Assembly (NCBI GenBank): GCA_031835245.2
Contig: JAVKOQ020000048.1
Location: forward strand, 236,066 to 256,065
Source of the DNA: Balamuthia mandrillaris
Lineage: Eukaryota
DNA length: 20,000 nucleotides
Direction: 5' to 3'
A program made the position numbers and the translations under genes. The notes below the pieces were generated by a model. The model was not told the DNA's origin and did not search any database. It saw only the letters and a program-made list of their open reading frames with translations. Below, piece after piece: positions 1 through 20,000 of the stretch (the stretch's first letter is position 1; each line of letters opens with the position of its first letter).

Positions 1-2055
1 TTTCTGCAGAGTGCCTCGTGTTGTACGAAATTATTTGTCTGCCAATGTCATCAAACATCACAGAGCGGGACTCCAGATTGGTGAAGATGCCTTTTGGTCA
101 CATGAATATGAGTTAGCACAGTTGTTTTTATAGGCAGCCAGCAGAATCACAAAAAAAGTACTGCACGCCACGAGAATGCGAAGACGAAGACGAAGAAGAA
201 GAAGAAGAAGAAGAAGAAGAAGAAGAAGAAGAAGAAGAAGAAGAAGAAGAAGAAGAAGAAGAAGAAGAAGAAGAAGAAGAAGAAGAAGAAGAAGAACAGG
301 AGGAACAAGAACAGAAACAACATACTGGATTTGAGCTGATTTTTTGCTCGCGTGACTTCTTCCTCTTGCAAACGGTGGGCCATCTCGGCTAATTGCAAGC
401 ACATGACTTGAACCATATCTCCGAGGTGGGAATGGTCCGCTTTAGCGTAGATGCCAAACATCCCGGTATCTTCATAAAAGGTATTGAAGGCGCTGGCGGC
501 ATCAACGTAGTGAAATTGGTTGAGGACATTGCGGTAGAGGCGAGAGTACATGCCTTTGCCAGGGCCACCAGGACTGAAAGAGCTTCCACCACCCATTAAT
601 GTTTGCAGCACGCAAGCCCCATAGAGGTCCTCGTCTTGCAAGCTCACGCCCTCAAAGGCTAGAACCACGTGGCTGGGATAGGGCTTGTCCAGTTGAGACA
701 TGGCGTGCAGTTTGTCTTCCACTTCAGGAGTCATGACCTCCAGATGTTCACCTCCCTTGTAGATTGGGTGAGTAGGAGGACTCACCACCGGTGATGATGT
801 AGAGCTTTTTCTCACATCCGCAAAGTGCTTTTCTGCCATCCCCACAAATTGCGCATGTTCCACACCTACTGCAGCAACAACTACACGGGGACCCACATAA
901 AACCGCTCTACGAACTGCAAGAGGTGTTCTCGGGTGATGGCCGAGATGTTGCTTGGAGGTACTAATTGACTCAAGCCTAGGCCTTCCTTGCCGTAGGCTA
1001 GCTCGTGCAGAACCTCCGATATCCATGTATCTGGGTCATATTGTATCTCCTCTAATTTCTGGGCCAACACTTGTCTCTGTTCTTCCATGTCCTCTTCCAA
1101 GAATTGCGGCGACTTGATGTTGTTGGCAAGTATCTCCAACACCTCTGGTAGATGGTCTTGGATAGTATCCACCTGGTAGACCATCAGCTCTCTCATGCTT
1201 GATGAGAAAGCTCCTGTGCCAAGTTCTTCTAAGCGTTGCACTATGTGTTGTGTAGTGTTTGTGGCGGTAGCCTGGGATAAGACCCAACATTCGTTATACA
1301 GAAAGCACGAAACAGCCACCTTGCAATCAACCAAGAAACAAACACAACAATACCTAGATACAAACCTTGTAGGCCATTCGCTGAAGGAAGTCTGTAACAC
1401 CATTGGTAGCAGGGGTTTCATATCTGGATCCAGCATTCACAAAGACGCCGACGGTGCTGACCTGGCCGTAACATTCCTCGCTGGCAACGCGAAGGCCGTT
1501 AGGCATGGTAGTCACCCGTGTAACCGGCCGTTTGAGTGCAGAGAGAGGAAGCGGCTCTGGTGTTCCTGGGAACGGCTCACGCATTGAGACAGTGGGTTGC
1601 CGTTGCGAAGTGAGATTCTTCGACTCTTCTTGCAGCCTCTGTTTTTTTTCCGCCCTTCGCTTGGCAACAGCAGGATCCAAGGGTGGCGCTGCAAAGTATG
1701 TCACTGGGAGGTGCGGTGTTGCTGTCACTGGTTGGCTGTGCGGTTGCCGCAGCTCCTCCCTAAAGGTCATGCTGCCGCGGAACCAACGCCGAGACATGCC
1801 TGTGTCACAGGGGTCATTGTCATTGTAAGATGAGTGAAACGCTGTTTTTCTCTCACTCAACCACTGAAGAAACAAAGCAGTACCTGGAAGGAGGCCCCCC
1901 ACCCCTCCACCGTCGCCACGGGGACTCACCAAGGCAGAGCCGTGTTGGCTGAAGTGCCGCAAGGTCGGGTCCCAAGGAAGAAACCGTGCTCCCAGTAACC
2001 GATGAATGGTTGATGGTCGTGAAAGGTTTTGGCGAAGCCCTCTGATCCCCTCCAT
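1..2055 (-). CDS. PMPCA: Mitochondrial processing peptidase alpha subunit (M16 family, non-catalytic); 3' end lies beyond the window. Exons approx. 2055-1930, 1863-1366, 1271-326, 90-<1
   Basis: TRVTTMPNGLRVASE...VGVFVNAGSRYE; HxxEH replaced by DFLQR; alpha-specific glycine loop GGGSSFSPGGPGKGMYSRLY. GT-AG splicing of 325..91 restores QLKSS-IFTNLESRSVMFDDIGRQI. Arg-rich presequence-like N-terminus. The first intron (1929-1864, in frame) is less certain. Confidence 0.93.
192..296. repeat. (GAA)35 microsatellite in an intron of the MPP-alpha gene
   Basis: Pure GAA run read directly; it explains the spurious poly-F and poly-L ORF translations. Confidence 0.97.
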
Positions 2056-2228
2056 GTTGTTGTTGCTGCTGCTGCTGCTGCTGTTTTTTGTCGTTCTTTT
2101 TCCTTTTGCGATTTCTTCTTCTGTTCTCTCTCTCTCTCCCTCCCTGCCGCTCCCCTCTTAGTGCCAGGAAAAGAGAGGAGCACGAGGGGTAGAAAGGTGC
2201 CCACCCACTTTTTGGGGCAACACCCTTT

Positions 2229-2254
<26 letters not shown>
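2056..2254. repeat. Oppositely oriented triplet repeats in the short divergent intergenic region: (GTT)3(GCT)6 at 2056-2083 and (CAG)8 at 2231-2254
   Basis: Read directly; each tract reads as CAG on the sense strand of the gene it precedes. Confidence 0.85.
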
Positions 2255-2259
<5 letters not shown>

Positions 2260-2293
2260 CAACAGGACAAGAAGGAACAAGTACCACCCAACC

Positions 2294-3664
2294 ATGCTGG
2301 AGAGCGGCGAGCTGGCAACCTCCTCCTCTTCTGGTGGCGAGGTGCCCCAAACCCTGCAGGCCTATAACCGTCTTGTTGATTGCCACTTTTTTGTGGCGGG
2401 GGAACACGGCTGTTCCAAAGGCCAGGAGTGTGAGTTCAGGCACTCACAGGCGGCCAAAGACAACCCCAAAGTTTGCAAGTTCTGGTTGCAGGAGGATTGC
2501 CTCAACCCCGACTGCAAGTTCCGTCATCCTACCCTCCCTCGCCAGGTTTTTTCCTTCCCTTCCTTCTTCTCTTCCTTGGCTTGCTGCCGTGGTGCGCAGA
2601 GCTAACGAACGCTTCACTGGCAAACCACACAGAAAGATGGCAGCAGGACATTTTGCTACTACCAGTCAACAGGGCAGTGCACACGGCGTGCTGTCTGCGC
2701 ATTTTACCATGGGGATGAGCCTCCGGGCAAGCTGGTGTATGCTGCTTTGTTGCAGCCAGAGTCAGTCGAACTGCCAACCCAGCTGCCCTTACAAAGACAA
2801 TCAGCTCGAGGCGCAGCAGCAACACTGACTCCCTTGCCATCCACACAGAGCTCCTCCTCTTCCACGTCAACAACTCCAGCAGCAGAGAGCACGAACAATA
2901 ATCCCTCCAAGAAACGTAAATTTGTAAAGTCGCTAGAAGAGCTCTTACAAGAAAAAGGTGAAGCTCAAACCACTGCCCCCACTTCACCTTCACCGTCCCC
3001 CAAAGAGGATCGGAAGGGGAAGGCCAAAGCTGACACTGAAATAATGACCCAGAGCACTGCCAAAACCGAGGAGTCGCAATCCAACAAAAAGCCTAGACTC
3101 GCACAGCAACAGCGAGAACAAGCGGCTACTGGACAGAATGCTGCCTCCACTTCTGGTGGTGGCCGTAAAGCCGACGGGAGAGTTGCCCGTCGTGCCAAAT
3201 CGCCTGCTACAAATGGCGGCGGTACGCGCCCTTCCTTTGGTGTAAAGTCTTTGAACGAGATACTGAAGGAGAGGGATCAAACCAGCACGCCTTCCTCCGC
3301 TTCCTCTTCCTCTTCTTCATCTCTCCCTTCAAATAACCGGATAGCAGAAGCCTATTCGAAAGCAGATGAGACACGAAAGGGAGTTCCAAGGCCAGCACCC
3401 TCAGATCCAATATCACCTGATACATCAGAGCTCGCATTACCGTCGTCGACATCGAGTGCAGTGGAACGGAAAGGAATTGGTATTAGGGCAGAGCAGCAGC
3501 ACAAGGAAGAGAAAGATGAAAGTGTAGATATTGATGTGGATGTAGACTTGGAAGTGGACGTGGATGGAGTGGAGGTGGACGTGGATGGAGATATTGACGA
3601 CGCAGAGTTGCAAGAGATCCTTGGCGCTGATGTGACATCTAGCGGCGGTGGTGCTGATATGTAA
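2294..3664 (+). CDS. ZC3H11A-like protein with three N-terminal CCCH zinc fingers; exons 2294-2545 and 2633-3664
   Basis: Fingers CHFFVAGEHGCSKGQECEFRH, CKFWLQEDCLNPDCKFRH and, after a GT-AG intron (2546-2632, GCTAAC branch site), CYYQSTGQCTRRAVCAFYH, in frame with ORF 2735-3664. Repeated VKSL(E/N)E(L/I)L motifs resemble those of ZC3H11A. Acidic C-terminus. Confidence 0.8.
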
Positions 3665-4337
3665 CAGTGGCGATAGGACTCTTGCCAGGTTTTTCCAGAA
3701 AAAAAGTTTAAAATTACAGAGATCATCTTGGATGGTTGGTTATAGTCTGAACTTAAATTTTTATGATATATAATAGCCATGTACTACGTCCTTGAGTAAG
3801 TAGGTGAAGCGGCTGGCCAGTGGGCTAGTTGACCAGTTTAACCATGCGAATAATCACGCGGGTACGTGGAATTCTTGAGTTTGGGGAAAGGGGAGATAAA
3901 AAAATTCATTGCCATGAATTTTTGTCGACGAACATCTCCTCGCGAGAGATGAGAAGTTGGACAAGCAAATACCACATTCCACTAACCCCTGTCTCTTAGG
4001 GTAGGTCTTTTTGAAACGCATAGCCTCTGTGCGTTACAACTCTGCTATGAATGACTCCGCCTTGCGTCGTGCTCTCCTTTCGAACGACAACGACATTCTT
4101 CACGGTGGCCTGCTCCCTTGTTTTTGGGGGGGGTTCAAAGATAGAAAGTTGGGCCTGTCCATGGCAGCCTTGCTGACCAATGTCGCCCTTCAGAAGGGGA
4201 CTCCATCCTTGTACTTTCGACAACCATCCCACCAAAAAGTTTACTTAGTACTACTCTAGTGGTGACAATTGTCTTTCTGTTCACTTGAAAGTGTTCCTAC
4301 TAAACACCATAAACACATTGTTCGATGTGGCAGCCTT

Positions 4338-5167
4338 TTACGTCCTTTGCTTCTTCTTAGGGGAGCGGGATTCCTTGTGACGGTCATGGCCGTTATGTGA
4401 TGGTTGTTGAGGATGGTTGCTTTTGCTGACGGCGGCTGTTGTCGGCGCTAAAGAAGGGGAAGAAGGACGGCCCTTCCCTGGCTTTTTGCTGCTATTATTT
4501 TTTGCAAGGGCTTTGCGCTTGGTGGACGCACCGCTTTGTGGCTGATCACCTTGTTCGTTCTGGTCGCTGGGCCGAGTCTTCTCAGTGGAACTGGGTGCAC
4601 GAAGGGAGTGTCGTATGAACCTCTCAGCAGCCTCTTGGTTTAACCGGAGGTTGGGTTTGTAGTCCTCGTTGGTGGACTGGTCAACTGTTAGCCCACTGGC
4701 CAGCCGCTTGACCTTCTGGATGTAGCTCTTCACTCTGTCCTGGTGGAAAGGGGATACCCCCGAGTGTGAAAAAAACAAACACAAGAGGAGGGCAAACAAA
4801 AACAAAAACAAAAAAGAAAAGGGTTTTTGCTGAGCAAATGCCTGCCTCTTACCAATTCAGCTTTGACAGGGTGACCTTGTGGGCTCACCCCCTGAGTTTT
4901 TAAATAGACTGGTTGCAGGAGGTGGTGGTTAGTACGCAAGCGCGGAGCCAACAAAATAAAGGGGGCAGGTGCCCTACCATAGTACAGCGAGTTGAGGGTA
5001 TAGCTGAGCATGACGTGCAGCTTGGCCCTTTCAACTTCGGAGAGACCAGCGTGGACGTCCTCTTGCGTGGCTCTAAGAAACGAACCCACCAATTCCTGCA
5101 ATGTTTGTACAGTTTGCTCCAGCGCCTCAACCGTAGAGTACACTTCCAACGGAACCTCGTCTGCCAT
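4338..5167 (-). CDS. C1D: C1D/Rrp47 nuclear exosome cofactor (Sas10/Utp3/C1D domain); exons 5167-4978, 4908-4853, 4739-4338
   Basis: The spliced product reads ERAKLHVMLSYTLNSLYYVYLKTQGVSPQGHPVKAELDRVKSYIQKV...LRLNQEAAERFIRHSL with a basic tail. Both introns are GT-AG with consistent phases. Confidence 0.88.
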
Positions 5168-5224
5168 TCTGCCGAATATAGCTGCTTTGAGGTGCTTAGT
5201 TTCTTCCTTCGTTTTCTTTTCTCC

Positions 5225-5335
5225 CTGTCGACAATAAATTTACTCACGGGGCGCTTGATCTTTCTTGACAACGGTGCCGGCACCCAAGCAACCTTACCGC
5301 CTACCGCCCCCCGCCCCCTCAGAGAGGAGGAGGAG
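5225..5335 (-). ncRNA. Candidate omegaRNA scaffold/right end of the Fanzor element (tentative)
   Basis: Lies immediately 3' of the nuclease ORF. Pairable segments on the minus strand: CCTCCTC/GAGGGGG, GGGGCG/CGCCCC, GCTTGG/TCAAGC, plus the palindrome GGTGCCGGCACC. Boundaries not determined. Confidence 0.3.
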
Positions 5336-5339
5336 GTGG

Positions 5340-5965
5340 TGGTAAGTGCTTGCAACGTGAAAAAGCGGATCAAGATGTTTCGGGCGGCGTTGGCACTCGA
5401 TCGGCCTATTGGTAGCCACACTCGGGTTGAGGGCACCGAAAGGTCTTGTTTCCCCCCAACCGGTGGTGGACTTGGCCGCACTTGCCGCAGGTCTTGGAGG
5501 TGCATTCCTCATCGCAGAGGCAGACCGTACAGGACGGAAATTGCTTGGCCTTGTTGAGGAGCCTCTGCCTGAAGCGATAGTGAACCAGGTGAGCATGGCT
5601 CTGGCCGTTCGCGAGCCAATGCGGCGGTGGCCTCGCCGCACCATCTGCTGGCTCCTGAACTCTGGCAGAAGGATGAGGGAGAAGTTCCTGACCAACCAAG
5701 ACACAAGCTTCTTGTGGAGGTCCTCCACCAGGTTGCGGATCCTCTGGCGAAGCTGAGCAGCGGCCCTTCGGAGACGGCGCCGTTGCCTGTGGTTGCCCTT
5801 GGTGCCCTTACTCTGCATGCGATCCAGGCGGCGGCACAGCTTGCCTATCTCGTTGATGTCCGCTTTGCCCCACTCGGTGACCTCCCCGCAGCCGTTGTAG
5901 GTGGTCATGAATGTGCGCACTCCTGGATCCAAAGCGATGATGCCTGCCTCTCTCCTTCGGTGCTT
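5340..5965 (-). pseudogene. Fanzor2/IS607-type TnpB RuvC + zinc-ribbon fragment, 5'-truncated and frameshifted
   Basis: RuvC-I GIIALDPGVRTF; ILLPEF with P in place of the canonical E; shifted E in DEECTSKTCGKCG; second Zn pair CPQPEC; RuvC-III ADR[D]ANAARNIL. Lesions: 1-nt deletion at ~5583 (W[S]HYRF), TAG at 5406-5408, 1-nt deletion at ~5395 in the catalytic Asp codon. REC/WED half absent. Confidence 0.9.
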
Positions 5966-6301
5966 AAACTATTGGACTATTTTTTTCTAACCCTTCTTTT
6001 CTTTCTTTACACCATTCAAGGAAGCATCATTCCTACATTTATTTAACTACATTAGGATATGAGTGGCAATCCTCCTCCCCGCCACCTTGCCCTCACAGAC
6101 GTGGGAGAAGGAAGGGTTGTTTTGGCGGGAATCATGCTCATTGGCCCAAAAGACTAATTCGTGGTTTCTTTTTTTTGTGTCCTTAGATCTTATGATCTTG
6201 GCGCCGCCTGGATCCAGCACTTCACTGTCAAGTGTGAGAAGAGAGAAAGACCGAGAAGAAAGAAGCAGAGTACTGGTCCCCCCCCCCCCGTCCGCTGAAA
6301 G

Positions 6302-8759
6302 ATGGAAATCACCAAAGAGAACCTCCAGGCGCAACTTCCGTCCTTGGAAGAGGCGATAGAGCGCTGCGAGTTTTTGAGTTTTGACGGTGAAATGACGGGA
6401 ATCACGCTGGACTACAAAGAGGAACGCCTCCATGCATTGGACACAGTGGAGCAACGATATCAAAAGTTGTGTGCCTCTGCGCAAAACTTCCTCACAATAC
6501 AGTGGGGTCTTTGTGCGTTCATACCAGAGGGGGATGGGTAGGTAACACAGTTAAAAACTGGAACAACAACCAAACGGAGACTAAAGCTAGCTTCTTCCCA
6601 AAAGGTACAAAGCAGAGCCTTTTAACTTTTATCTTTTCCCAAAACCATTTCGCAAGGGAGCGGAGCAATATTTTCTGTCTCAAGTCTCTTCTATTCACTT
6701 TTTAGCCTCAAATGGCTTTGACTTTAACAAGCTGATATACCACGGTAAGCCCCTTGAAGAGACTTATCTTTGTTGCTTCCCAAGGTCACTCAAACAGTAA
6801 TACTTCTTCTTTGTTCCCTTGACAAGGTATCCCTTGGCTAACACGCGAGGAAGAAGAACGACAACGACCAAAACAGGAGCCCACTTCACCATTGCCTCCT
6901 AGTGATATTGTTTTAAACGAGAAAGATAAAGAGTTCCTGAAGCCAATTCATACTATGATAGAGGAATGGTTGCAATCCTCAACAGAGCAAGCTCTCCAGC
7001 TTGCTCCTTGCAACTCCTATCAACGGCGTTTGCTCTACCAAGAAATAGGAAAGCGGTAAAAGAAGTCGTCTATTCTGTTTCAGTTTCTGTTTACAAACCC
7101 GTTCTTCACTTAAAGCTTCGCTGACTTGTTACTACATTTTAATTTTGCCTCTGTCAGCTATAATAACCGTTTGCATGTGGAGGCTCACAGTGTTGAAAAC
7201 ACTCACCTTCGTAGCGTGAGTATCAGTCGCATGACGGAGGAAGAGAAAAGCCAACGGCAAAGGGAACAACTACAGCACTCAATGGTTTGTTTAGCCACAT
7301 GAAATCTATTCCTCTGCCTTAACCGTCATTCTCACAACTTGAAGGATGAGCTAGAGGAAGCAATTGGCTTTCGCAAAGTCTTGGAGATGCTCATCAGGCA
7401 TCACAAACCTCTTGTTGGGTATTTCTTCCTTATTGTTCCCTTCCCCAACGTTTTGTTTCTTGCTTTTGGTTTTTCCTGTATTGAATAGTTTTCTTTGCCA
7501 CTATGGAACAGGCATAATATGCTTCTTGATCTACTTCACCTCTTTTCCTTTATTTATCAACTGCCTTCAACTGTGTTTGATTTCAAGGCGAAGGCTACTG
7601 AGCTCTTTCCTTGGTATGTGCACATTCTACGAAGGGACACTAGGTCGTTTTTTTGTAGTTATTAATTGTTTCTCATGAAATATTTTTGACAGCATTCTGG
7701 ATACTAAGTACCTAGCTACTGCTTCTAACCATTTTAAAGTAAGAAGCACAGCCCCTTAAACCCTTAAATTCTGAAGCCTTCAGAATAATTCAATTTTTGT
7801 AATACATAGGATTTATTGCCTTCCACCTCATTGGAAGATTTATATCGAACCTTCAATAGTCTAGAGTATCAGTCCAAACCGACTGTTGAATTATCGGATA
7901 GGTGTGCTGAATTTAATACCTACAGCATTGACACATCTCGATTCCATGAAGCAGGCTTTGATGCCTTTATCACAGGATTATCTTATATTAGAATGCTGCA
8001 TAAAATAGGTAGACAGTTAATAATCCTTTTTTTTTGGTACTCATTAACATGAATGGATCAATAGCATTGGAAGAGAATTGGCAAAGTCCTTTTACTCCAG
8101 CTTCTGGTAGGGTTTAAGTATTGTCCATATCACTTCAATATTAACTCACCATTTCAATTTATAACATTGCAGGGTTATTAGATCAGTATGTCAACAAATT
8201 ATATTTAATGCGTTCTGATATCCCATATTTTCAGATGAATGGTCTTCAAGGTAACATTATTTTATTTTTCACCAATTTAGCTTTCTTTTCACATCAATCC
8301 ACAGAACCACCAGATAGATCCAATGTTTTTTATGTTTTTGGCTTTGATAGTGCATTACAGACAACAGACATTGTGAGACACTTTGAGGACTTCAGCAGAG
8401 TATTTGTTACCTGGCTGGATAGCACATCCTTATTAGTTGCTTTAGAAGATAAAGAACAAAGCCAGCAGGTTATACCACATTTTCAGACCCTTCCCAGTCC
8501 TCCTTTTCATATTCTTGATTATGACACCTATCAACACATGTTTGCTCAGCATTCTGCTAGCCACTCCTCTTTCATGTCTATAACTAATGAAGTGAAACAG
8601 CATTTAAACTACAAAAGAAAAAGAAACACATTGTCTACAAATGAAAAAACAGAATTTGCACAGCCAATAAGGAAAAAAGTAACTTCAAACATTAATGAAG
8701 AAAAGGAAGAAGGAGAAATTGTTGAAGAACAACAACATAATGATGTTAAAGAAAAATAA
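6302..8759 (+). CDS. PARN: Poly(A)-specific ribonuclease (DEDD/CAF1 nuclease + R3H + RRM), multi-exon; first exons 6302-6537, 6605-6744, 6827-7055
   Basis: Motifs in the expected order across GT-AG introns: MEITKENL...FLSFDGEMTGI, PFNFYLFP, SSIHFLASNGFDFNKLIYHGIPWL, R3H CNSYQRRLLYQEI, GHNMLLDL, DTKYLA, HEAGFDAFITG, RRM PPDRSNVFYVFGF. Confidence 0.93.
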
Positions 8760-11599
8760 ACAAAATACCTTTAATATTCAGTCTCAATACCTATCTTTTT
8801 CTTTCTTCTTTTCTATTTTTTACATCACTTCAAAAGATTGATGGAATATAAAAAATAGTTTTGAATACAACATGGTCTAAACTTATAATATTTTAAAAAA
8901 ATGATTTATAATAATTAAAAAACCTATAAATAAAATAAAAAATAACCCTAATTAACTTTACTTTTTTCTATTACCGTGCACAATCAAGTTTTTCCAAATT
9001 TCTGGGTTTATCCGTATTTTCTCACACAGAACAAGTGGGAAAAAAAGTATTTTGGAAAAACTTGAAAGTGCTGGGTAATATTCCTTAAACTCTATTTTTT
9101 ATTTATTTTATAATATACTACTTTATTATAAGGGAAAAAAAACAAATATATTTTATAATTAATTACTTTTTTTAAGGGAGCATACTTGTTTTTGTCCCAT
9201 AATTCGAGGGTATTTTGTTTTGCCCTCTTTCTGCACAAAAAAAGCATTACATCAAAAAAAAAAAAAAAAACAAAAAACAAAAAACAAAGAACCTCTTCAA
9301 AACAAAAAAGGGTGTTCCTTTTTGGAAATTATTTTTGATAAATAATGAATAAACATTTTTCTATTGAATATAAAACATTTGAAATTAATTTTGTTCATAG
9401 TTATTGACAATCAAATATCTGTAATGGAAATAAAAAAATGAAAAAATTAAGGAAAAAAAAAACAGAAAAAAGAAACTATTATACTTGAGTAGAAATAGTA
9501 AATTCTAGCAAAGTTAAAAAAACGTTTATGAAGCTTGATCTAATAGAAAAACAAAAAAGTGACCAAACCAAAGTGTATTTTAAATGAAAAAAAGAAAACA
9601 ATAAAGAATCTTTAGTGTTGCTTAAAAAACACTTTATAGCTTTATGAAGTTGGTAACAGGTTAGATCAACCAGGTATTATCCCTTTTGATAACATTTGTG
9701 TATACATAACACTGAGTTGGGCCAAAATACCTGTTTTTATAACATTGCCTAGAAAGCAATTTGTAAAACCTTCAAATATAATACTACCAGTGTAGTTCTT
9801 TACAAAAGCAGTTTTTCACTGGGATGTTGGCCAGAATCAGAAGTCCTGGTCTGTGTTGTACTAGCTGATAGGACAAGGACCTGTCCTGAGAGAGCAAAAG
9901 GCCTGAGTCTCCAAGGGCCTTGCTAACAGGAAGGAGAGGGTAGGAAGAGGCTAGTCAAGGCCTTGTTGATAGCTACCAGGAGATAAGCAGTGACTTACAT
10001 TTTTTTTAAGTGCAGTGATCTCCTGGTCATGGACAGGGAAAACTAGTAAATGCCTGAGATGTGGAAAAGAATATGGCAAGAGCACAAAAACGAGAGAAAG
10101 AGAGAGAGAGAGAAAGAAAAAAGAGAAAGAGAAGAGAAGAGAGAATAAGAGAGAAAAGAAAGAGAAAATAACACAAACTATAAAAAGAATGAGGAGTGCT
10201 GGTTCTATCATCAGCGCCATAGCCATGAAGCCACTGATGAATGTCATCAGGAAAAAATAAAGGATTGGCAGGTCGCTACATGCTTCCATTGATAAGTGGG
10301 CCTGTTGGATTTTTGTTGACATAAGCAAAAGAAAAAAACATGCTTCAGTTGTCTGCTGTCCACTGCAAATTTCAAGTTAGTGAGGTGATCTTTTTCTGCA
10401 AGCTATATATGTGCACTTTCGTTTATCTTCAAGCTGCACACATGTGTGCACTTCTAATACTTTTTTTTTTCATCAGTCTGTACATATGTGCTCATGTTGA
10501 TCATTGTCTTTTCCCATCTTTTTGTTTTTCTTCTTTCTTCTAATAAATCATTTTCTTTCAATCTGTACCTACAAAGAGAGATGATTAAGCAACCATTCTA
10601 CACCATTATATAGTCTCTTTTATCACTATCATCAACTATGATGATAGTTTTTCTGTGTAGGTCTTTGCTTGCTTACTGGCCAAGTAGTAGTAGTAATAAG
10701 AAGTTTATTTGCTCTAAGAGCAACACCTGTCTATATAAAAAGTAAGCATTGTACATACATAGTACTGGCCAAGTATTTTTTTGTAATCCTTTCAAAAATT
10801 TTTCTTTATATGGCTGAGATCATGCACCACCTTCACTGAACTAAGCCTTGGATCTTCTTGTTGTTGGGAGATGTTAGAAAGGGAATAGGACCAAGAAAAA
10901 AGACAACAGAGTGATGAGAGCCCAATGTAATTTAATGCATAAAAAGAAAAAAGTGTGTGAGTGTGTGTATATTTGTCCTCTTGTTTTGTGAACTGCAACC
11001 TTAGTGAGGAAAATGAAAGAAGAACCCAATTTATAGTTAGGAAGGGAACCTTAAGAGCCAGAGATTGAGGGTTCGTCAGTAAAATTGCCAATTCTCAATT
11101 TCTGAACTTGAAGAAACTTCACAGGAAATGACCAGGAACAACAAGTTGATCTTTGGTGTCAAAAAGATTAATTAACAGAGTGATATCAGTTGTCAGCAGA
11201 AAAAGATCAAGGAGAAAGAAGGAAGAAGGGAGGAGAAAAGAGTTGATTATGTTGGCAGTTGCCCACAGAGATATAAACCCTGCAAATCAAGAAAGGATGG
11301 CATGTAGGTGACTCTTCCTTTTGTTTATTTTCCCCTTCTCTTTGTTTAAAAGCTCATTCAACACCTTTCACTTGTAAACAAAAAACAATTAGGAAGGCAT
11401 TGAGGATAAGTGAGTAAGAAATTTTCCTCTTTTCTTGCAACATATTCAAAGCACACACTTTGGTTCACCCAAAGATGACTGTAACATGTTTGACAAAGAT
11501 CTGTGTGTTAAGCTTCCTCTCAACATTGCTCAAGATTGCTGAAGGCATCCACAATACACTCCAACACAACCAGCAAGTGCCTCATGGTCCCAGCAGTAC

Positions 11600-12330
11600 T
11601 CTTCCAGAGAGTGTTATCTACCTTAATGCTGGTGATGCTAAACCTGTTTTTCATAAGCAATATACCATTCCTCACGTGTATCATAGCCCTCTCTTCACTG
11701 TTCGCTCCTTTAGCAACTGAATTTCACTGTAGACATGGAGTTGTCAACCAAAGCAAAATCACATCCCTTCTTTCTCTGAACAAAAACGCCTCCTGCAGCT
11801 GTTTCACACAAAAGGACATCATGGAGCAGAAACCTTGTTCATCAAGATCTGAAATAAAGGCTATTATGGCCTACTTTCCATGCTGACTGTTCTCACACTT
11901 GCCTGCAACAACTGCCTTAAGCATAACATTACCAAACACAGCTTTCATCCCCTGAAAACTATCCATGCTACTTACTCCTTCATCACAACATCACCATCAA
12001 TCTGTTTGGCCCACTTCCCACTTCCTCCAAAGGCTTCAACTATGTTCTGATTACCACAGACATTGCTACCTGGTTCACTTTTCTCTTCCCAGTCCACGTC
12101 AAGACTTCCAAAGATGTGACCTCTACTTTCTATCACTTTGTCTCTGATTTTGGTCTTCCTAAGATCCTTCAGTAAGACAATGAGCACTGAGTTTGTCAAC
12201 ACAGTCATCAAAGCTCTTGACCCACTCTCTGGCTTTGAGCACCAATTCATCTTGGCCTATCATCCTGAAGCTGACAGAGCTGCAAAAAGCCACGGTAAGC
12301 TGGCCTGCAACACTCTTGATATACATTGTG
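11600..12330 (+). mobile_element. Degenerate Ty3/Gypsy-type pol relic (pre-RT segment plus integrase Zn/core), internally deleted
   Basis: VIYLNAGDAKPVFHKQYTIP (pre-RT motif); CNNCLKHNITKHSFHPLKTI; LFGPLPTSSKGFNYVLITTDIATWFTFL; LPKILQ*DN..TEFVNTVIKAL; AYHPEADRAAK. Spread over several frames with stops. Confidence 0.8.
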
Positions 12331-12899
12331 AACAAAATTGCAAACTGCCTCAAGTATTTTATGCTCAACAGTGGTCTTAGCTCAAAGGCAACAACACACC
12401 AAGCCTGAAAAGGTCAAAGAAGGCAAAAAGAGCCTCTTTTTTGACAGTACACCTCATGTAACAGACACCCCCTACTGTGTAGCTGGTCTATCATTTATAG
12501 AGCACCCATTACTTCTCCAGACTCTGTTTTCCTCTAAGATTCCAACTGGTCTACTTGCTCACAACCCTGAATGTGATGGCCACCTGGAATCCTTTTGTTG
12601 GCAACTGGAGAACAACTAGCATTCCAACTTGTGGAATATGGCCCTAGCAAAGTACACACATGTAAAACTACTTCCAGTGGAACAATATAGTTGTACCTTG
12701 CTATGGTATCAGGCCAGAGATTTCTACACCGCCCACTTCAGCAGTAATGCAGAACTTCAGACTTGTCTCTATGACGACTTCTTCAAGCTGAATGTTCTTA
12801 TTTCACAACAAAGCAAAGTGTTATTACAATAAACTAAACAGTGAATTCATTGTTGTTAACCATTGTAATGATAAGTGTTGGTGATTTTTACCATAATGC

Positions 12900-13120
12900 T
12901 CCTTCTCTTAACACTATTATCAGACTTGCCAACAAGACATTGGAGGAAGAAGCAAAGAAATACCTTGATTCCTCAGATGAGGAGCTTGTCTTAGGCAGTG
13001 ATGGAGTATGGAGTCAACAAAGAAATGCCAGCTTGATTGGCTGCAAGAGATGGACTTACTCTCCTAAGTGACAATGTTTGTCTATGACCAAGACTCCTCA
13101 GTGCTAAAAATACTGCAAGG
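12900..13120 (+). mobile_element. Probable Mutator-like DDE transposase relic
   Basis: LVLGSDGVWSQQRNAS resembles the DGxWxxR first-Asp motif. MFVYDQDSSVLKIL follows in another frame (from 13074) and resembles the DGDSS second-Asp motif. The intervening sequence appears deleted. Confidence 0.5.
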
Positions 13121-13839
13121 TCTATTCATACATAAAAGCAAATAATAAAATGGTGTATACAGCTTTTATAAAGTCAGTGAAAGTTGAAGAAGCCAACACA
13201 GCTGCCAAAGAAGATGATAGAGGTTTGTAGGGAAAAGCTCTCATTGTTAGAAACAAAAAGTTCCATATAAGAGCTAGGAAGAGCAGAAGATTTCTTGTGA
13301 AAAGAACATAGCTTCTTGTGTCATCAACCAGAAGAATGTTAGAAAGGGTGAATAACATAAACAGACAGGGTCAAAACGTATTATTCAAAGAGGGAACAAG
13401 GAACAAATGGTGTCAAGAGAGAAAGGTGGGATATGAATGAAACAAAACTAATTAACTAAAAGAAAGAAAAAAGGAAGCAACAGAATAAAAGAAAGAAGTC
13501 TGGCCAATACTTTTGGAACCTGTTGACTGACATAGCAAAAGTCAACTTATTTTAGCTATTCATTAAAAACATATATCCATAAATTTAAATGTCTATTTCT
13601 TAATCTTGGTCATTTATAAAGACATACTGCAAAATTTTATGTTGGATTTTTTGTGTTGCTAAAGACATAATTCACTAATGTCTAGAAAACAAAAAAGGAG
13701 ATTCTCCTTTTAGAAAGTTGAAAAGGCAAAAGATATTTTTTTTTCTCTGAATTTTATTATTTTTATAAAAAGCAAAATCATTTAACCAAAAAGAACAAAT
13801 AATTAATTATTATTATCTTTTTAACCAAAGTTAATTTGC

Positions 13840-14090
13840 TCACACACTGGGCTCTCATGATTCTCCATTATGACTTCAAAGTTTTCCACTAGCCTGGAAT
13901 TCACCATATCCTAAAGGACTCCCTTTCACAGTGTACCCACTTAACAAATATTAACAAATCTTGGAGCAACTTCACTTCAGCCAAAACAAAGGTGCTGAAA
14001 GCCTTCTTCATAAAGTTCTCAAGGAAGGTTACAGTTAACTTGTGGAAGATTTCTTCCCTGGATTTGTTTTAACCACTAGTTCATCTTTTC
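13840..14090 (+). mobile_element. Second Ty3/Gypsy relic (RNase H C-terminus and start of integrase)
   Basis: HWALMILHYDFKVFH*PGIHHILKDSLSQ matches the RWal.l..ydF.i.hrpG..n..aDaLSR consensus. It is followed by QILEQLHFSQNKGAESLLHKVLKEGY, which resembles the integrase Zn-finger His region. Confidence 0.7.
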
Positions 14091-14307
14091 AGATTACCTA
14101 TGAGCCAACATAATTTTTTTTTCAAATTTTATTAATAAGGAAAATCATAAATTATTTTTTATATGAATGGAATAGTATTTTATAATATTAAAGAAAACAT
14201 TTTTATTATTGTTATTTGAAAGTTGATATTTCAAAAACAGAATTTAATTGTCTAATTTGTCTTTTCCTTTATCTTTTTTTGATTTAGTTGATTGAGAAGA
14301 TGTGTTG

Positions 14308-17300
14308 CTATAAAAATCTGAAAAATCCTAAATCACTATTATTATTGTTCTTTTTACTTTCTGTATCTTCTTGTTCTTCTTCTTCTCTTTCTTCTTCTTC
14401 TTCTTCTTTTTCTTCTTCTTCTTCTACTTCTTTACTTTTATCTTTTTCATTTTGTTGTGCTTTTGATTTTTTGTGGTTTTTGGAGGTAAGCTTTGGAAGT
14501 TCTTCATCTTCCTCTTCAGATTGATTATTATCTTTTGGAACTTCATCATCTTCATCATCTGCATTTTTTGGTACTAAATCTTCTTTCAGAACTTTTTGTT
14601 TTTTCTTCCAAGCAACTAAGCCTTTTTGCACCTTGTTTCTATCCAACACAGTGGTTGCTAATAATTTTGCATGCTCTGCTAAGTTTGTGGCTCCAGAACC
14701 AGGAAACAAGGCCACAAAATGACGCATTGCTAACATTTATAAATGTTTTAGTTCATTACCAAAAGAAACAAGGAAAGGAAAAACAAAAGGATGAACTTAC
14801 TTTCCAAACAAACAGGCAAACAACCTGTTGTGGGATTAAAGGCCAACACCACATCTTTAGGCTCTGTGAATGTGTTCAGCAAATAACGATACACATTTAA
14901 AGGAGGAACAGGAGAAGAAGAGAGATTCGCCTGATCAGCCACTTGTCCTTCCTGAGCTTGAGGTCCCTTGATTGGAATCACCACTGAAGTTGGTTGCCAT
15001 GTCTCCAAGGCCAACAGAGAAGAAGTAATCGAACTAGAATCATCCTGCAACTGTGTTTGGCCTTTGTTCCACACTGCCACAAAGATGCCATTCTCACACC
15101 ATTGTGGTTTGTTGTTATGGTTGGAATGGTGAGGTTTGTACCCAAAAACAAGAACTGTTTCTAGCTTCAAGTTAATCAAAAGCTGACGTTGCTTTTGTTT
15201 ATAGGCATTGATTTGATTCATGGCCAAGTGCAAGTGATTATAACGGGTAGTTATCAACAAAACCCTTTCCACATGATGATCTGGGAAGAATGAGAGAAAA
15301 TTAGACAGACAGCAATCTGAGTTCTTTGGAAAAAATAACCCAAAAAAGACTTACTTTGGCAGTGTACTCCCAAGGAATCAAGCATCAAGGGAGCATGTGT
15401 TGGTAAATTATCATAAATGATCACTTTGAACTTGGTAGGAGGGGAATGAGAAGCAAGCACGTCCTTTCCCCATTTGTTGAGTTGGTGGGCCAATTGTTTG
15501 GAGGGTTGAGGAGGAGTGTTGAGTTTGGGTCTGCCACGATGATGGTTTTTTGCTTTTTTGGCCTGGTGTTTGGAAGAGGTCTTTGGTTGTTGTTTTTTGC
15601 TTTTTCTTTTTTTTTTCCTTTCAATATCATGAGATGGTTTTGGTGAAGGAGGTGGAGAGGGTTGAGGTGTAGTGGTGTTTGAGTGGAATGGAGGAGAAGC
15701 TGGTTCATCGGAGGGTATGTGTTGCTAGCAGCAAGGAATGAATAAATGAATGAAAGATAGCAAAAGGAAATGTTAACTAAACTTCAATGCCATAGAAATC
15801 AATACACTTTAGAAAAGGCATACTTGAATTGCCTGGTGAAAAGCAGTATCTCCAGATAAGCCTTGTTTCTCAAAGAACTCTTCATCATACTCGCCACTGT
15901 TCACCTGATCTTGGACTTCCTCCAAGTGGGCTAAAGGAATCTCTTTTTCAGTATGATACAATTCCAGTTCTTCATGCATAGCTTTTCGACCAATGTGTTT
16001 CCACATCTGCATGTATGCACGTTTCATGAGGAAAAGTAGTAGTGACAAGATAGAGAAAGAAAAGATTGCAATGCAGCTTACCAATCTTTTGAAGTTGGTT
16101 ACAGAACATTCTTCCTTGGGATCCTCGAGGTGCCTTGCCCATATCTCTTTCAAGGCTGCCAACAAGGTTTCATCTGATAAGGAGCTTGGCATTTTCTCTC
16201 TGAAGTGGTAAGGAGTAAACACCCAGCCCCCCTTCTCTTTGTCCTTCTCCTGAATATAACTCCAAGACTCTGGGAATTTCTGCATTTTGTTTGCCACTGT
16301 TTTCAAACGTCAAACACGATCAAAGGTAAGAGCATTATGGGCATCTTGGGAGGCAGTTTTTGAATTCTAAAATACAAAACCCACCCAACACAAAAGAGAA
16401 AAAATGAGCAATCATTTTAGAAAGCTTGCCTGCAACCAAAGAAGGCCTACCAGATAATGGAACAGCTCCTCTGGTGTTTTCGTGAGATGATTGTACACAA
16501 AACGGACCATATCCCATTCTGTCTCTTGATTGACTCCTTCGAACAACACCAGGTTGTCCCAGGCAGACAACTTCCAAGAAATATAAGTAAGTCACCTTGT
16601 TAAAAAACAGAAAAAGCAACAGAAAACTCCAAGGTATTGTACCTTGTCCAAGACAGCCACACTTGGAAGTTGTTTGCCATCAAATGGCAGCACTTTGGCC
16701 CTCCAAGTTAACTCCTTCAGCTTTGGGGAGTTTTCACAGTACAATACGTGGGCTGCTGCACATCGATGGTTACCTCCAAGACATACATATTCTTGTTGAT
16801 TGCTTTCTGGATGCACCCACAGAGCTGAAGGCAGTTCCATCAATAATAAAGAAGAGCGTTCATCAAAAGACAAAATGCCGCCTGAGTTGAATGTGGCCAG
16901 CAGCTTGTTCAACCCCTCTGGTTTTAGAGGTTGATGCCAACCTGATAAAACAAACGAAGTTAATGACAGTACAAAGTTAAAAGAAGGCATGAAAAACTGT
17001 GGAGGGTATTCGCTGCACCATATGGCGCAGCCAATGCCCTTCAACTAGTCAACAAGAGAGAAAAAGGCCAAAGGCATGAGCTGTGCCGTACGGCGCAGCC
17101 TATAACCTTTTCTTGCCAGCCAAACAAGAAATTAAGGCAGCAGTTGTGATCTGCGCCATATGGCGCAATCATTACCCGAACTATAAAAGGAAAGTGTTGA
17201 TCTGAAGGGCAGATCTGCGCCATATGGCGCAGCCAACACCCTTCCTTCAAAAATACCAGAGGATTTGAAGGGCTGAACTGTGCCGTCCGGCGCAGCAAAT

Positions 17301-17924
17301 GAGCTGAAGGGCTGATCTGCGCTGTACGGCACAGTCAACACCATCCCTTCAAATAATAATTTGGATGAGAGAAGAGAAAGGGCAAAAGTAGGATGGAGCT
17401 GGACTGGCCCTTCTCCCTTGAGGAAGAAAGAAGCAAGGCGAATAGTGGCCGTTCAGCTGTTGACTATAACACAAAAATAAAAGCACAAACCTTTCATAGT
17501 GATAGCTTTCAACGGAACCAAACGAGTCCCCTCCTGAAGCCGAGTTTTACAAAGTTCTGCCACCTCTTTGGTTTCCTTGTCTGCGCCATCCGGTGCACAA
17601 AATAGACGCACAGCTTCCAAGTCGCTCTCGCGCAAAATCCAATCATTTCTTGTTGGAGTGCTATCATAAAAAACCTCAATCACTCACCAGAAAAACCAAA
17701 ATGGAGAGCAAGTTGTTTTACCTGTTGGATGGGGAGGAAGATGAGCCTTCATCTGTTTCCGAGAGGTCCAATGGTTGGTTGGAAGAAGGATTCAACGTAG
17801 GAGTTTGTAGCATTTGCAATTTGTGCGACAAGACAGATTTGGAGTCCTTGGTGGTCCATTGTCCACTGAGGTCATCGATCCTTTGCCGCAGTTCTTTCAC
17901 TGTCAATCTCTTGTTGTCCGACAT
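14308..17924 (-). pseudogene. Nine-exon gene: SAP/HeH-like + ParB/Sulfiredoxin-like + AT-hook + degenerate beta-class N4C/N6A DNA methyltransferase-like domain + acidic tail; mildly decayed
   Basis: Exons 17924-17722, 17660-17491, 16941-16643, ~16580-16451, 16366-16082, 16006-15824, 15724-15355, 15280-14801, 14729-14308. Seven of eight introns are GT-AG with matching phase; the exon 4 acceptor is unresolved. Motifs: LTVKELRQRIDDL..TKDSKSVLSHKL; RLVPLKAI..YVCLGGNHRCAAAHVL; HRGRPK; FKVIIYDNLP; PPLNVYRYLLNTFTEPKDVVLAFNPTTGCLPVCLETMRHFVAL. In-frame TGA at 16312-16310. Confidence 0.75.
17013..17334. repeat. Cluster of six 18-bp palindromes separated by largely unrelated spacers, inside intron 2 of the ParB-like gene
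   Basis: Copies start at 17013, 17081, 17151, 17215 (perfect CTGCGCCATATGGCGCAG), 17278 and 17317; spacers 50, 52, 46, 45 and 21 nt. Confidence 0.9.
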
Positions 17925-18361: not shown

Positions 18362-18940
18362 CGCGTTGGCTGCACCATACAGCGCAGATCAGCCCTTTCC
18401 CACTCTCTTTTCTTTTGTATGGCTGGCATTGGCTATGCCGTGCAGCGCAGATCAGCCCTCTTCTGCTTTCTTTTCTTTTGTATGGCAGGCATGGGCTGTG
18501 CTGTACGGTGCAGATCAGCCCTTTTCTGCTCTCTTTTCTTTTGTATGGCAGGCATGGGCTGTGCTGTACAGCGCAGATCAGCCCTTTTCTGCTCTCTTTT
18601 CTTTTGTATGGCAGGCATGGGCTGCACTATATGGCGCAGATCAGCCCTTTTACTCAATTTTTTTCTTTTGTTTGGCAGGCATTGGCTGCGCCATATAGTG
18701 CAGATCAGCCCTTTCCAGCTCTCTTTTCTTTTGTATGAGAGGCATGGGCTGCGCCATACGGCACAGATCAGCCTTTTTCCGCAATTTTTTCTTTGATAGG
18801 CAGGCATGAGCTGCACCATACGGTGCAGATCAGCCCTTTTCTGCTCTCTTTTCTTTTGTATGGCTGGCATTGGCTACGCCATACAGTGCAGATCAGCCCT
18901 CTTCAGCTTTCTCTACTGTTGTATGAAAGGCATTGGCTAT
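18362..18940. repeat. Tandem array of ~9 x 63-bp units, each carrying the same 18-bp palindrome
   Basis: CAGATCAGCC recurs at 18385, 18448, 18511, 18574, 18637, 18701, 18764, 18826 and 18889 (period 62-64). Unit consensus is approx. GGCAGGCATGGG-CTGCGCCRTAYGGCGCAG-ATCAGCCCTTTTCTGCTCTCTTTTCTTTTGTAT. Confidence 0.96.
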
Positions 18941-19224
18941 CCTTCCTATCCAATGAAAAGCAAATTTTTTCAAATTTTTCTAGCAAGCAAGAATGTTGAG
19001 TGTGTCATATGATGCAAAAGCGCCCTTTCCTTTCAACAAAGAATTTAGCAACCTTCATTGTGAAGGGCAGATCTTGTGTCATACAGCACAGCCAATACCC
19101 TCTTATACCCTTTTGATTATTTATCTATTCTGCCACCATTTTTTTTCTTGTAAAGTGTTGATTCTTCTGCCTGACTTATGAGGTTTCTTTAGATAGGACA
19201 TCATTGCAGTAGAAAAAGAGCACC

Positions 19225-20000
19225 ATGGCCTTCCAACCACCATCCAAACTGAAAAGCACTGCACGTCGGTTTTTTTCAGAGTAACATATCCAGACTTCAA
19301 AGCACAGTTACTGCTGTCAACAATACTGTCTTTCCAGCATTTCATCAGAGGATTTCAAGAGATGCGCACCTATTATTGGACACTGGACTCAGAACAAGCC
19401 AGAACCAAATTTCTTGGGGATTGCTTGCTTTTTTCTTATGGTCCTTATCAAGAGACCAGAGCTGTCAGGCCCTCCAAGCAACGATTGCTTTTGGCTGGTC
19501 ATCTGGTTTGTTACAAAGCAATCCAATTATGGCTGGCCCTTTCCAATAAGAAGTTTTATGCCTGCATGGACTTGTGGAAAACGGGAGTCACTTTACCTCT
19601 TCATCGCAATCATGGCCTGGTTTGGCACTTCACCACCTATTTGCAAACCAAAGCCTGGCTTACAGTGTACTTTGCCAATATGGGAGAATCCTTGCCAAAC
19701 TCTGAAGTCATTCAGATTCCAATGATATTGAATCGAAAAGCCTTGTATCAAGAAATGGTATTAAGCCTGGGACATGATCAAAGCATCAGTTATGCACGCT
19801 TTTTGCAAATGTTGCATGAAGATTTCTCTTATGTTCATTTTTTCCAAGGTAAGCTTTGTTTGTTGAGAGAGTTTGTCAAAAGAAAGGAATGATTCATTGT
19901 TTTTATTCTAACAACCTGTTGATGAATAATTGTTATTGCTTTCTGTATTAGCAAACCAGATTAGGAAAATGTGATCAATGTGCTCAGCTTCTAGTTCGTT
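19225..20000 (+). pseudogene. N-terminal part of a Sola-like (DUF7869-type) DNA transposase, decayed; continues beyond the window
   Basis: ATG at 19225 in CACCATGG context; TAA at 19282; CCQQYCL..FKRC[frameshift ~19365]RTYYWTLDSEQARTKFL; VCYKAIQLWLALS; IQIPMILNRKALYQEM..ISYARFLQML..FSYVHF; intron 19849-19951; QTRLGKCDQC. The splice phase needs one fewer T in the run at 19838-19843. The catalytic core is not in the window. Confidence 0.6.

Follow-up and report, generated by a model that had tools for sequence, protein, structure and literature searches.

ParB proteins load at palindromic sites by means of a clamp gated by nucleoside triphosphate (NTP) (PMC13229309, PMC12704722), and a survey of ParB/Srx proteins names sulfiredoxin as the common eukaryotic member (PMC12704722). 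A design that combines ParB with a methylase has already been described for transposons of algae, in the Ectocarpus element Sola1-1 and in genes of Bostrychia Plavaka elements. The Ectocarpus DNA transposon Sola1-1_Ec32 is 21.5 kilobases (kb) long and encodes an accessory protein of 1104 amino acids (aa); binding of the element by this protein, and its modification, have been proposed (PMC12477816). Such algal accessory genes were noticed only recently, and their activity is a prediction only. Here we describe a gene in a 20,000-nucleotide (nt) stretch of the amoebozoan Balamuthia mandrillaris (contig JAVKOQ020000048.1; "the window" below) that is very probably the cargo gene of a transposon and encodes ParB-like and methylase-like domains. 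It lies head-to-head with a DUF7869 transposase-like gene, and a palindrome of 18 base pairs (bp) recurs in and between the two genes. Our reading, to which we assign a probability of roughly 0.5 as a whole chain, is that the gene is a passenger of a Sola-like element and that its product joins a ParB-type switch to an inactive methylase fold and binds the palindromes of the element. The gene was first noticed from the window's letters alone, and that original prediction saw in it a host gene of horizontal origin adapted to chromatin.

Gene model and transposase partner

Splicing along eight GT-AG introns (61, 549, 72, 84, 75, 99, 74, and 71 nt) joins nine exons in phase into 843 codons on the minus strand, from an ATG at 17924 to a TAG at 14308, and the NCBI protein models at the locus match residues 1-264 (P0007) and 292-420 (P0001) of the spliced product exactly. 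The exon chain of the original prediction is therefore confirmed, as are the positions that it quoted for the GNHR and RGRP motifs (Table 1). RNA evidence bears on one of its eight junctions. Run X6 is labelled as probable DNA and yet behaves as RNA, in that a neighbouring host gene is spliced and the pieces end at exon ends. An X6 contig runs over 14813-15278 and 14457-14729, and these two pieces are just 15 letters apart, where an unspliced molecule would have at least 83; intron 8 was thus spliced out; the contig holds an extra codon, missing at 14812 in the window copy, and therefore comes from another copy or allele. X6 depth is 5-16 over 14213-17901 and about 1 or less just outside (0.32 on the left, 0-1.2 on the right). 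Some copy of the cargo gene is thus transcribed and spliced. None of the other seven junctions is among the joints listed from the read tables. The RNA runs X14, X15, and X16 place 2, 2, and 0 reads on the gene, and they are uninformative about its expression, since X15 barely covers the PARN-like host gene either. Two alternative splicings were rejected: skipping of the in-frame stop in exon 5 by a later acceptor (16279 and beyond) stays in frame but does so without a pyrimidine tract and deletes sequence that aligns to the relative L215 (see below), and the donor at 14824 used in some NCBI models drops the region of the S-adenosylmethionine (SAM) loop, lowers the methylase score to -2.2 bits in P0001, and conflicts with the X6 contig.

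The plus-strand frame from 19197 on belongs to a DUF7869 protein (PF25273; E values of 5e-44 and 2e-42), a transposase of the DDE type. The window copy of this gene is broken: its codon 20 is a stop, and its frame shifts near 19350. Its acidic triad lies beyond the window and was read from other copies: D275, D310, and D352, together with a GH motif, are invariant in all 18 aligned DUF7869 relatives from animals and metagenomes. A DUF7869 model accompanies the cargo gene on four of its eight contigs (three by neighbouring accession numbers, the fourth being the window's own contig), and the depth of run X2 over the transposase gene, 99, is on par with that over the cargo gene. Presumably, DUF7869 corresponds to the Sola1 transposase, judging from motif likeness; that equation is not established, and neither is membership of the Balamuthia element in Sola1. 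We regard the element as likely to be a Sola-like cut-and-paste DNA transposon. DUF7869 is named in no paper found by our literature search, and no relative of it was found in viral contigs.

Relatives of the cargo protein were found by way of the transposase. With phmmer, no relative outside Balamuthia was found among 1.84 billion proteins: six of the 12 matches were looked up and are all from Balamuthia, and the other six match only an unrelated insert of the query. A transposase-based search gave 79 metagenome loci with a DUF7869 gene, two of which (L169 and L215) carry, on the opposite strand and head-to-head with the transposase gene, an intron-rich gene that GT-AG splicing turns into an open frame (402 aa in L169, where the contig end cuts it, and 697 aa in L215). 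Both loci are compact, at about 5.5 kb, and L215 is apparently intact. Both proteins align to the N-terminal half of the window protein, with z scores of 6.9 (L169) and 8.9 (L215), none of 1000 shuffles reaching either, and controls below zero. Phages and plasmids gave weak tblastn matches to P0007, which proved to be either tape-measure proteins or artefacts on the opposite strand. A fragment alignment of exons from the three families was misaligned and was not used. A further locus, L192, holds two inverted DUF7869-like segments on one 4.6-kb contig, with 430-nt arms that are 77% complementary.

The L215 protein also bears on the NCBI annotation, which has the ParB-like and methylase-like parts as two separate genes. 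That the models are split here on at least three contigs (P0007/P0001, P0022/P0004, and P0019/P0018), that no full-length NCBI model of the cargo gene was found, and that exons 4-5 are spanned by none of the reads or contigs listed would fit such a split; we consider it very unlikely, given that L215 has one open frame aligning ungapped across codon 283, where the window copy has its stop, that run X1 has a sense codon at this position, and that X6 depth is continuous over the whole gene. The annotation can thus be corrected, in that eight contigs carry mis-split and mis-named models of one element.

ParB-like and methylase-like domains

The GxxR signature is the Box II motif of ParB/Srx proteins (ParB-CTPase fold; PMC12704722). 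In an alignment that includes six ParB proteins, it reads GNHR in the window protein, L169, and L215, and a downstream asparagine aligns in all three families. The Box I arginine varies: it is Arg128 in copies P0022 and P0002 and Gln in the window copy, L215 is arginine-rich there, and L169 lacks it. When the GxxR exon of L169 served as the query, ParB-family or DndB proteins made up 19 of the 21 weak matches among plasmids, 7 of the 26 among phages, and five of seven PHROG families (best E value, 0.005), and the ESM Atlas offered a lead from the window protein to ParB_N. A profile of 11 ParB sequences scored 28.9 bits with L169, 7.2 with L215, and 3.4 with copy P0022, each above all 1000 shuffles, although these scores are inflated, as the seed sets for both the ParB and the methylase profiles were picked from matches to these families, and the 3.4 bits lie only just above the 3.3 of the best shuffle. 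Also telling against the assignment, the ParB-like part of the window protein has no direct match in Pfam, NCBIfam, PHROGs, or PDB sequences, and the top PDB match of the L169 exon is to NHL repeats (E value, 0.0013). An AlphaFold2 model of P0007, with a mean predicted local distance difference test score (pLDDT) of 33.5, is too low in confidence to judge a ParB/Srx fold. We therefore take the ParB-like domain as likely, drawing mainly on L169 and L215 and little on the window protein itself.

The second half of the protein resembles a permuted N6/N4 methylase. It matches PHROG 18293 (E value, 1.4e-4). Among 18 weak matches in phages, 16 cover a single stretch, and 14 of those 16 are annotated as DNA methylases. 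A methylase profile, with seeds picked from those same matches, scores 16.6 bits, and the best of 2000 shuffles reaches 8.6. In an alignment with three phage enzymes, the SAM-binding region is C-terminal, and both order and spacing follow those of permuted N6/N4 methylases over about 230 residues. The window protein does not reach the Pfam cut-off for an N6/N4 methylase of the PF01555 type, and an AlphaFold2 model of the second half (mean pLDDT, 34.0) retrieved nothing with Foldseek at an E value of 0.001, which is no evidence either way.

The motifs that such an enzyme would use appear to be lost. The catalytic motif consists of [DNSH] followed by two prolines (PMC4738411). The best candidate for [DNSH]-Pro-Pro-aromatic in the Balamuthia copies is DNLP, and L215 has no such motif; the glycine-rich SAM loop is replaced by FNPTTG, and the acidic position after the next strand is hydrophobic by comparison with the three phage enzymes. 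Both losses occur in all copies aligned, and L215 looks degenerate at the same positions, with different replacements in a weak match. We consider the methylase probably inactive on these grounds. The domain could instead be active with unusual motifs and write N6-methyladenine or N4-methylcytosine on the element, for which one may cite the preserved permuted order and spacing, the activity predicted in the algal papers, and the abundance of ParB-methylase fusions in phages (PMC12704722); with both motifs replaced throughout, and differently in L215, we regard this as improbable. In the original prediction, prokaryote-type enzymatic domains had been acquired long ago. The ParB-like and methylase-like ancestry bears out the old acquisition and the prokaryotic type of the domains, and it is the word "enzymatic" that has become doubtful for a methylase without catalytic and cofactor motifs.

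Two further modules of the original prediction fared less well. For the SAP/HeH module, residues 1-41 gave no profile match other than a tape-measure family (E value, 0.0025) below the family cut-off, and no SAP/HeH chain was found among PDB sequences at E values up to 10. Residues 9-21 and 29-37 are helical in a low-confidence model (pLDDT, 39-48), and L169 and L215 lack the module of exon 1; the module resembles SAP/HeH by eye only, and the assignment is unconfirmed. The AT-hook comes down to the four-residue RGRP core, which is present and which L169 parallels with GRP at the same position, without a Pfam match.

Palindromic sites, copies, and surroundings

The 18-bp palindrome occurs in 17 copies in and between the two genes, where 0.01 would be expected: intron 2 holds six of them and exon 2 holds one, a tandem array with a 63-bp unit accounts for nine, and one lies past the array. 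The two related loci have palindromes of their own. L215 has nine copies of a different one, about 20-24 bp long, and all five of those within its cargo gene are intronic, with introns making up 21% of that gene (P = 4e-4); L169 has four copies of a third, 26 bp long. A splice-donor consensus can be read in the L215 palindrome on either strand, and the palindrome provides the donor of introns 3 and 7. In the same locus (1503-5947), the transposase gene has two short introns that bear palindromes and are alike, which raises the question of whether such sites generate introns. A strict palindrome scan, which missed L169, found at least three copies in 3 of the 79 DUF7869 loci and in none of 80 phage loci, and at least two copies in 7 of 79 versus 2 of 80, with none in shuffles.

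The anatomy of the element suits a DNA transposon with an accessory protein that binds DNA site-specifically, and the palindromic form of the sites implies that the binder is a dimer. In ParB proteins, a DNA-binding unit follows the ParB domain, and by analogy a dimer of the cargo protein would recognize the 18-bp palindrome through the helical region that follows its ParB-like domain. The retained GxxR and Asn would then bind an NTP, and the protein would load and spread over the element, with the dead methylase fold serving to bind DNA or protein. The element would likely profit by being marked as self, which would either keep it transcribed despite CpG methylation by the host or organize it for transposition. 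Binding and spreading are favored here because the nucleotide residues are kept while those of the methylase are not, and because the sites lie along the element at no coding cost. A nucleotide-binding motif that is retained next to methylase motifs that are lost is an argument for binding, rather than methyl transfer, as the conserved function in this branch. We infer binding of the cargo protein to its own palindromes at about even odds. The wider idea of a widespread class of eukaryotic DNA transposons running a private ParB-parS system, in which each family encodes an NTP-gated sliding clamp with a repurposed, dead methylase fold that loads at its own palindromes throughout the introns (in L215 even at splice donors) and coats the element, is more tentative; if true, it would place a bacterial partition-type clamp on eukaryotic chromatin, where it would evade host methylation or prepare transposition.

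The window copy itself is a pseudogene, while its exon chain is right. Codon 283 is an in-frame TGA, the tail is shortened by a frameshift near 14330 (other copies match on to about 14244-14247), and one codon is missing at 14812 relative to runs X1, X2, and X3. A sense codon stands at position 283 in the X1 contig (depth, 31.4 of 31.4) and in one X15 read, and the difference is a CpG-type transition. Half-gene models occur on eight contigs of one B. mandrillaris assembly, and read depth over the gene on single contigs is 92-128 in X2, compared with 15-16 over host genes, and 495 in X3, compared with 81-139, from which roughly 6-8 copies (X2) or 4-6 copies (X3) are estimated. The gene is thus present in about 4-8 near-identical copies (85-100% identity) and is not a single-copy domesticated gene.

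The gene sits in a CpG-depleted repeat block. The observed/expected ratio of CpG is 0.63 over host genes (1-8000) and 0.10 over 9000-14200; within the cargo gene it is 0.63 in exons 1-2 and 0.21 in exons 3-9, and it is 0.27 in the gene at 19190-20000. Among 40 listed differences to X1, 19 of the 34 transitions are of the CpG type, compared with a background of 0.19. Young transposons are reported to be methylated in the related amoeba Acanthamoeba (PMC12344493), and we infer CpG methylation in Balamuthia as well.

Copy number, transposase linkage, and decay decide against the adaptation to chromatin as a host gene that the original prediction proposed. Its eight introns, its basic and acidic stretches, the transcribed and spliced copy in X6, and the better-kept CpG of exons 1-2 would suit a domesticated gene of horizontal origin. 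The gene is, however, multicopy, adjoins a transposase gene, and shows a premature stop, a frameshift, and CpG-type decay, and it has no relative beyond Balamuthia in the protein search, while the relatives that were found are transposase-linked and intron-rich. Multiple copies, transposase linkage, and decay together make it the cargo of a mobile element, and domestication is largely refuted.

Several observations weigh against our reading of a palindrome-binding passenger. No such cargo gene is seen in 77 of the 79 DUF7869 loci, most of whose contigs are only 1-6 kb long. Sola-type elements are marked by terminal inverted repeats and a 4-bp target duplication of the AWWT type (PMC3845634). 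For the Balamuthia element, neither the ends nor inverted repeats nor a target duplication were found, its right end lying outside the window. L215 has a 25-nt inverted repeat whose beginning resembles the Ectocarpus terminus, and a 4-bp duplication to match it is absent. With the methylase profile, the C-terminal half of L215 scores -1.7 bits, and it reaches a z score of 3.5 to the Balamuthia domain (6 of 1000 shuffles), and a dead methylase across the family therefore draws on two sequences and an alignment by eye. Further, the window's palindromes comprise 68 CpG positions, of which 26 remain CG and 42 have decayed, which shows that the palindromes of this copy are not protected from CpG decay. 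Finally, locus L203 has palindromes beside its DUF7869 gene and no ParB-like gene in 1.9 kb upstream, and the transposase may therefore be the palindrome binder.

This last point leads to the main rival, in which the element is the same, the palindromes are binding repeats of the transposase, and the ParB-methylase-like gene is a passenger that does something else or has no function. DNA transposons often carry repeated binding sites for their transposase, and at L182 (10-155) three 20-bp palindromes upstream of a DUF7869 gene, at a contig edge, have a 63-bp spacing equal to the period of the window's array. Yet the L215 palindromes are spread over introns, both those of the cargo gene and, as judged by eye, those of the transposase gene, rather than placed at the ends, those of the window flank the 5' end of the cargo gene, GxxR and Asn are kept in all three families, and the Bostrychia arrays adjoin a ParB-like gene. 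We consider binding of the palindromes by the transposase the less likely reading and prefer the cargo protein as their binder.

The coordinates of the gene, its sites, and its surroundings are collected in Table 1. Within the window, a multicopy segment that begins at 8944-9080 has a 35-nt hairpin, and its first letters resemble the L215 terminus; it is possibly the left end of the element, followed by nested insertions. A remnant at 12838-13200 was rejected as the element's transposase, having no Pfam match and near single-copy depth. Its DG-W motif may be that of a Mutator- or Kolobok-like transposase. On the left, an X3 contig lacks 5170-6296, and the TnpB/Fanzor-like segment is therefore an insertion polymorphism between two host genes; the C1D-like host gene is spliced in X15 and X6. 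Toward the repeat block, over 7500-8760, the CpG observed/expected ratio is 0.21 and GC falls into the 3' part of the PARN-like gene, as if methylation spread from the block.

Table 1. Features of the window, with positions counted from its first letter
Feature	Positions	Strand	Remarks
Exon 1 (aa 1-67)	17722..17924	-	Short two-helix module, SAP/HeH-like by eye only, then Ser/Pro-rich linker; matches P0007
Exon 2 (aa 68-124)	17491..17660	-	ParB-like domain starts; one degenerate palindrome at 17581-17598
Intron 2 (549 nt)	16942..17490	-	Six 18-bp palindrome copies, starting at 17013, 17081, 17151, 17215, 17278, 17317
Exon 3 (aa 125-224)	16643..16941	-	ParB-like core; GxxR = GNHR at 16774-16763
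Exon 4 (aa 225-264)	16451..16570	-	ParB-like domain ends; conserved Asn238
Exon 5 (aa 265-359)	16082..16366	-	Helical region; in-frame TGA at codon 283 (16312-16310)
Exon 6 (aa 360-420)	15824..16006	-	Acidic, helical; matches P0001
Exon 7 (aa 421-543)	15355..15724	-	Pro/Lys-rich linker with RGRP core (15538-15527); first strand of methylase-like domain, degenerate catalytic motif at 15415-15401
Exon 8 (aa 544-703)	14801..15280	-	Permuted N6/N4-methylase-like domain; degenerate SAM-binding loop (14840-14823)
Exon 9 (aa 704-843)	14308..14729	-	Methylase-like domain ends; acidic tail
Tandem array	18368..18938		63-bp unit x 9.1, one 18-bp palindrome per unit
Degenerate palindrome	19074-19091		Past the array
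DUF7869 (PF25273) transposase-like gene, 5' part	19225..20000	+	Head-to-head with cargo gene; leaves the window
Host genes, ordinary by eye	1-8760		Mitochondrial processing peptidase alpha-like, CCCH zinc-finger, C1D-like, PARN-like
TnpB/Fanzor-like frame	5294-5968	-	PF01385, E 2e-6; frameshifted, high-copy
Very high-copy repeat	about 10500-11050		
Decayed Ty3/Gypsy-like long-terminal-repeat retrotransposon	11400-12450	+	Protease and integrase remnants, by eye from translations
Remnant with DG-W motif	12838-13200	+	

Comparison with described systems

We found no paper on this Balamuthia element in a search that lacked most subscription journals. Green algal cases are reportedly treated in a 2011 chapter by Iyer. 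Phage fusions of ParB with N6/N4 methylases (PHROG 498) share the domain order, with a ParB domain containing GxxR followed by a permuted methylase; they are prokaryotic, intronless, and intact in their methylase motifs (PMC12704722), unlike the Balamuthia gene.

Other mobile elements share single aspects of the Balamuthia system. The anti-silencing proteins of plant VANDAL elements (VANC) offer a possible functional parallel, as accessory proteins that act on tandem sites of their own element, although protein and transposon family are unrelated and activity has been shown for VANDAL/VANC and is only predicted here (bioRxiv 10.1101/2025.02.11.637652). DIRS1 retrotransposons, too, keep a methylase fold with substituted catalytic residues, but theirs is of the PCIF1 type, unpermuted, and part of a retroelement polyprotein without ParB (PMC4738411).

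The algal elements come closest. In Bostrychia, the Plavaka elements have the accessory genes PAG2 and PAG3, of which PAG3 encodes a ParB-like protein and lies by tandem inverted-repeat arrays, with a PF01555 methylase in the same cassette; they differ from the Balamuthia element in their EnSpm/Plavaka transposase and in having ParB-2OG-oxygenase and methylase-SET fusions as separate genes (bioRxiv 10.1101/2025.02.11.637652). Sola1-1_Ec32 has, like the Balamuthia element, an opposite-strand gene with ParB-like and N4/N6 methylase domains (PMC12477816); it comes from a brown alga, no sequence match to it was detected, no search aimed at its sequence having been possible, and motif loss and intronic palindromes are absent from the description in the passages available. 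With three families that each pair a protein with a palindrome, ParB-like self-marking of transposon DNA becomes testable by swapping proteins and sites. Set against the text passages on the algal cases, what is new in Balamuthia and its relatives is the amoebozoan host, the apparently dead methylase, and the family-specific intronic palindromes.

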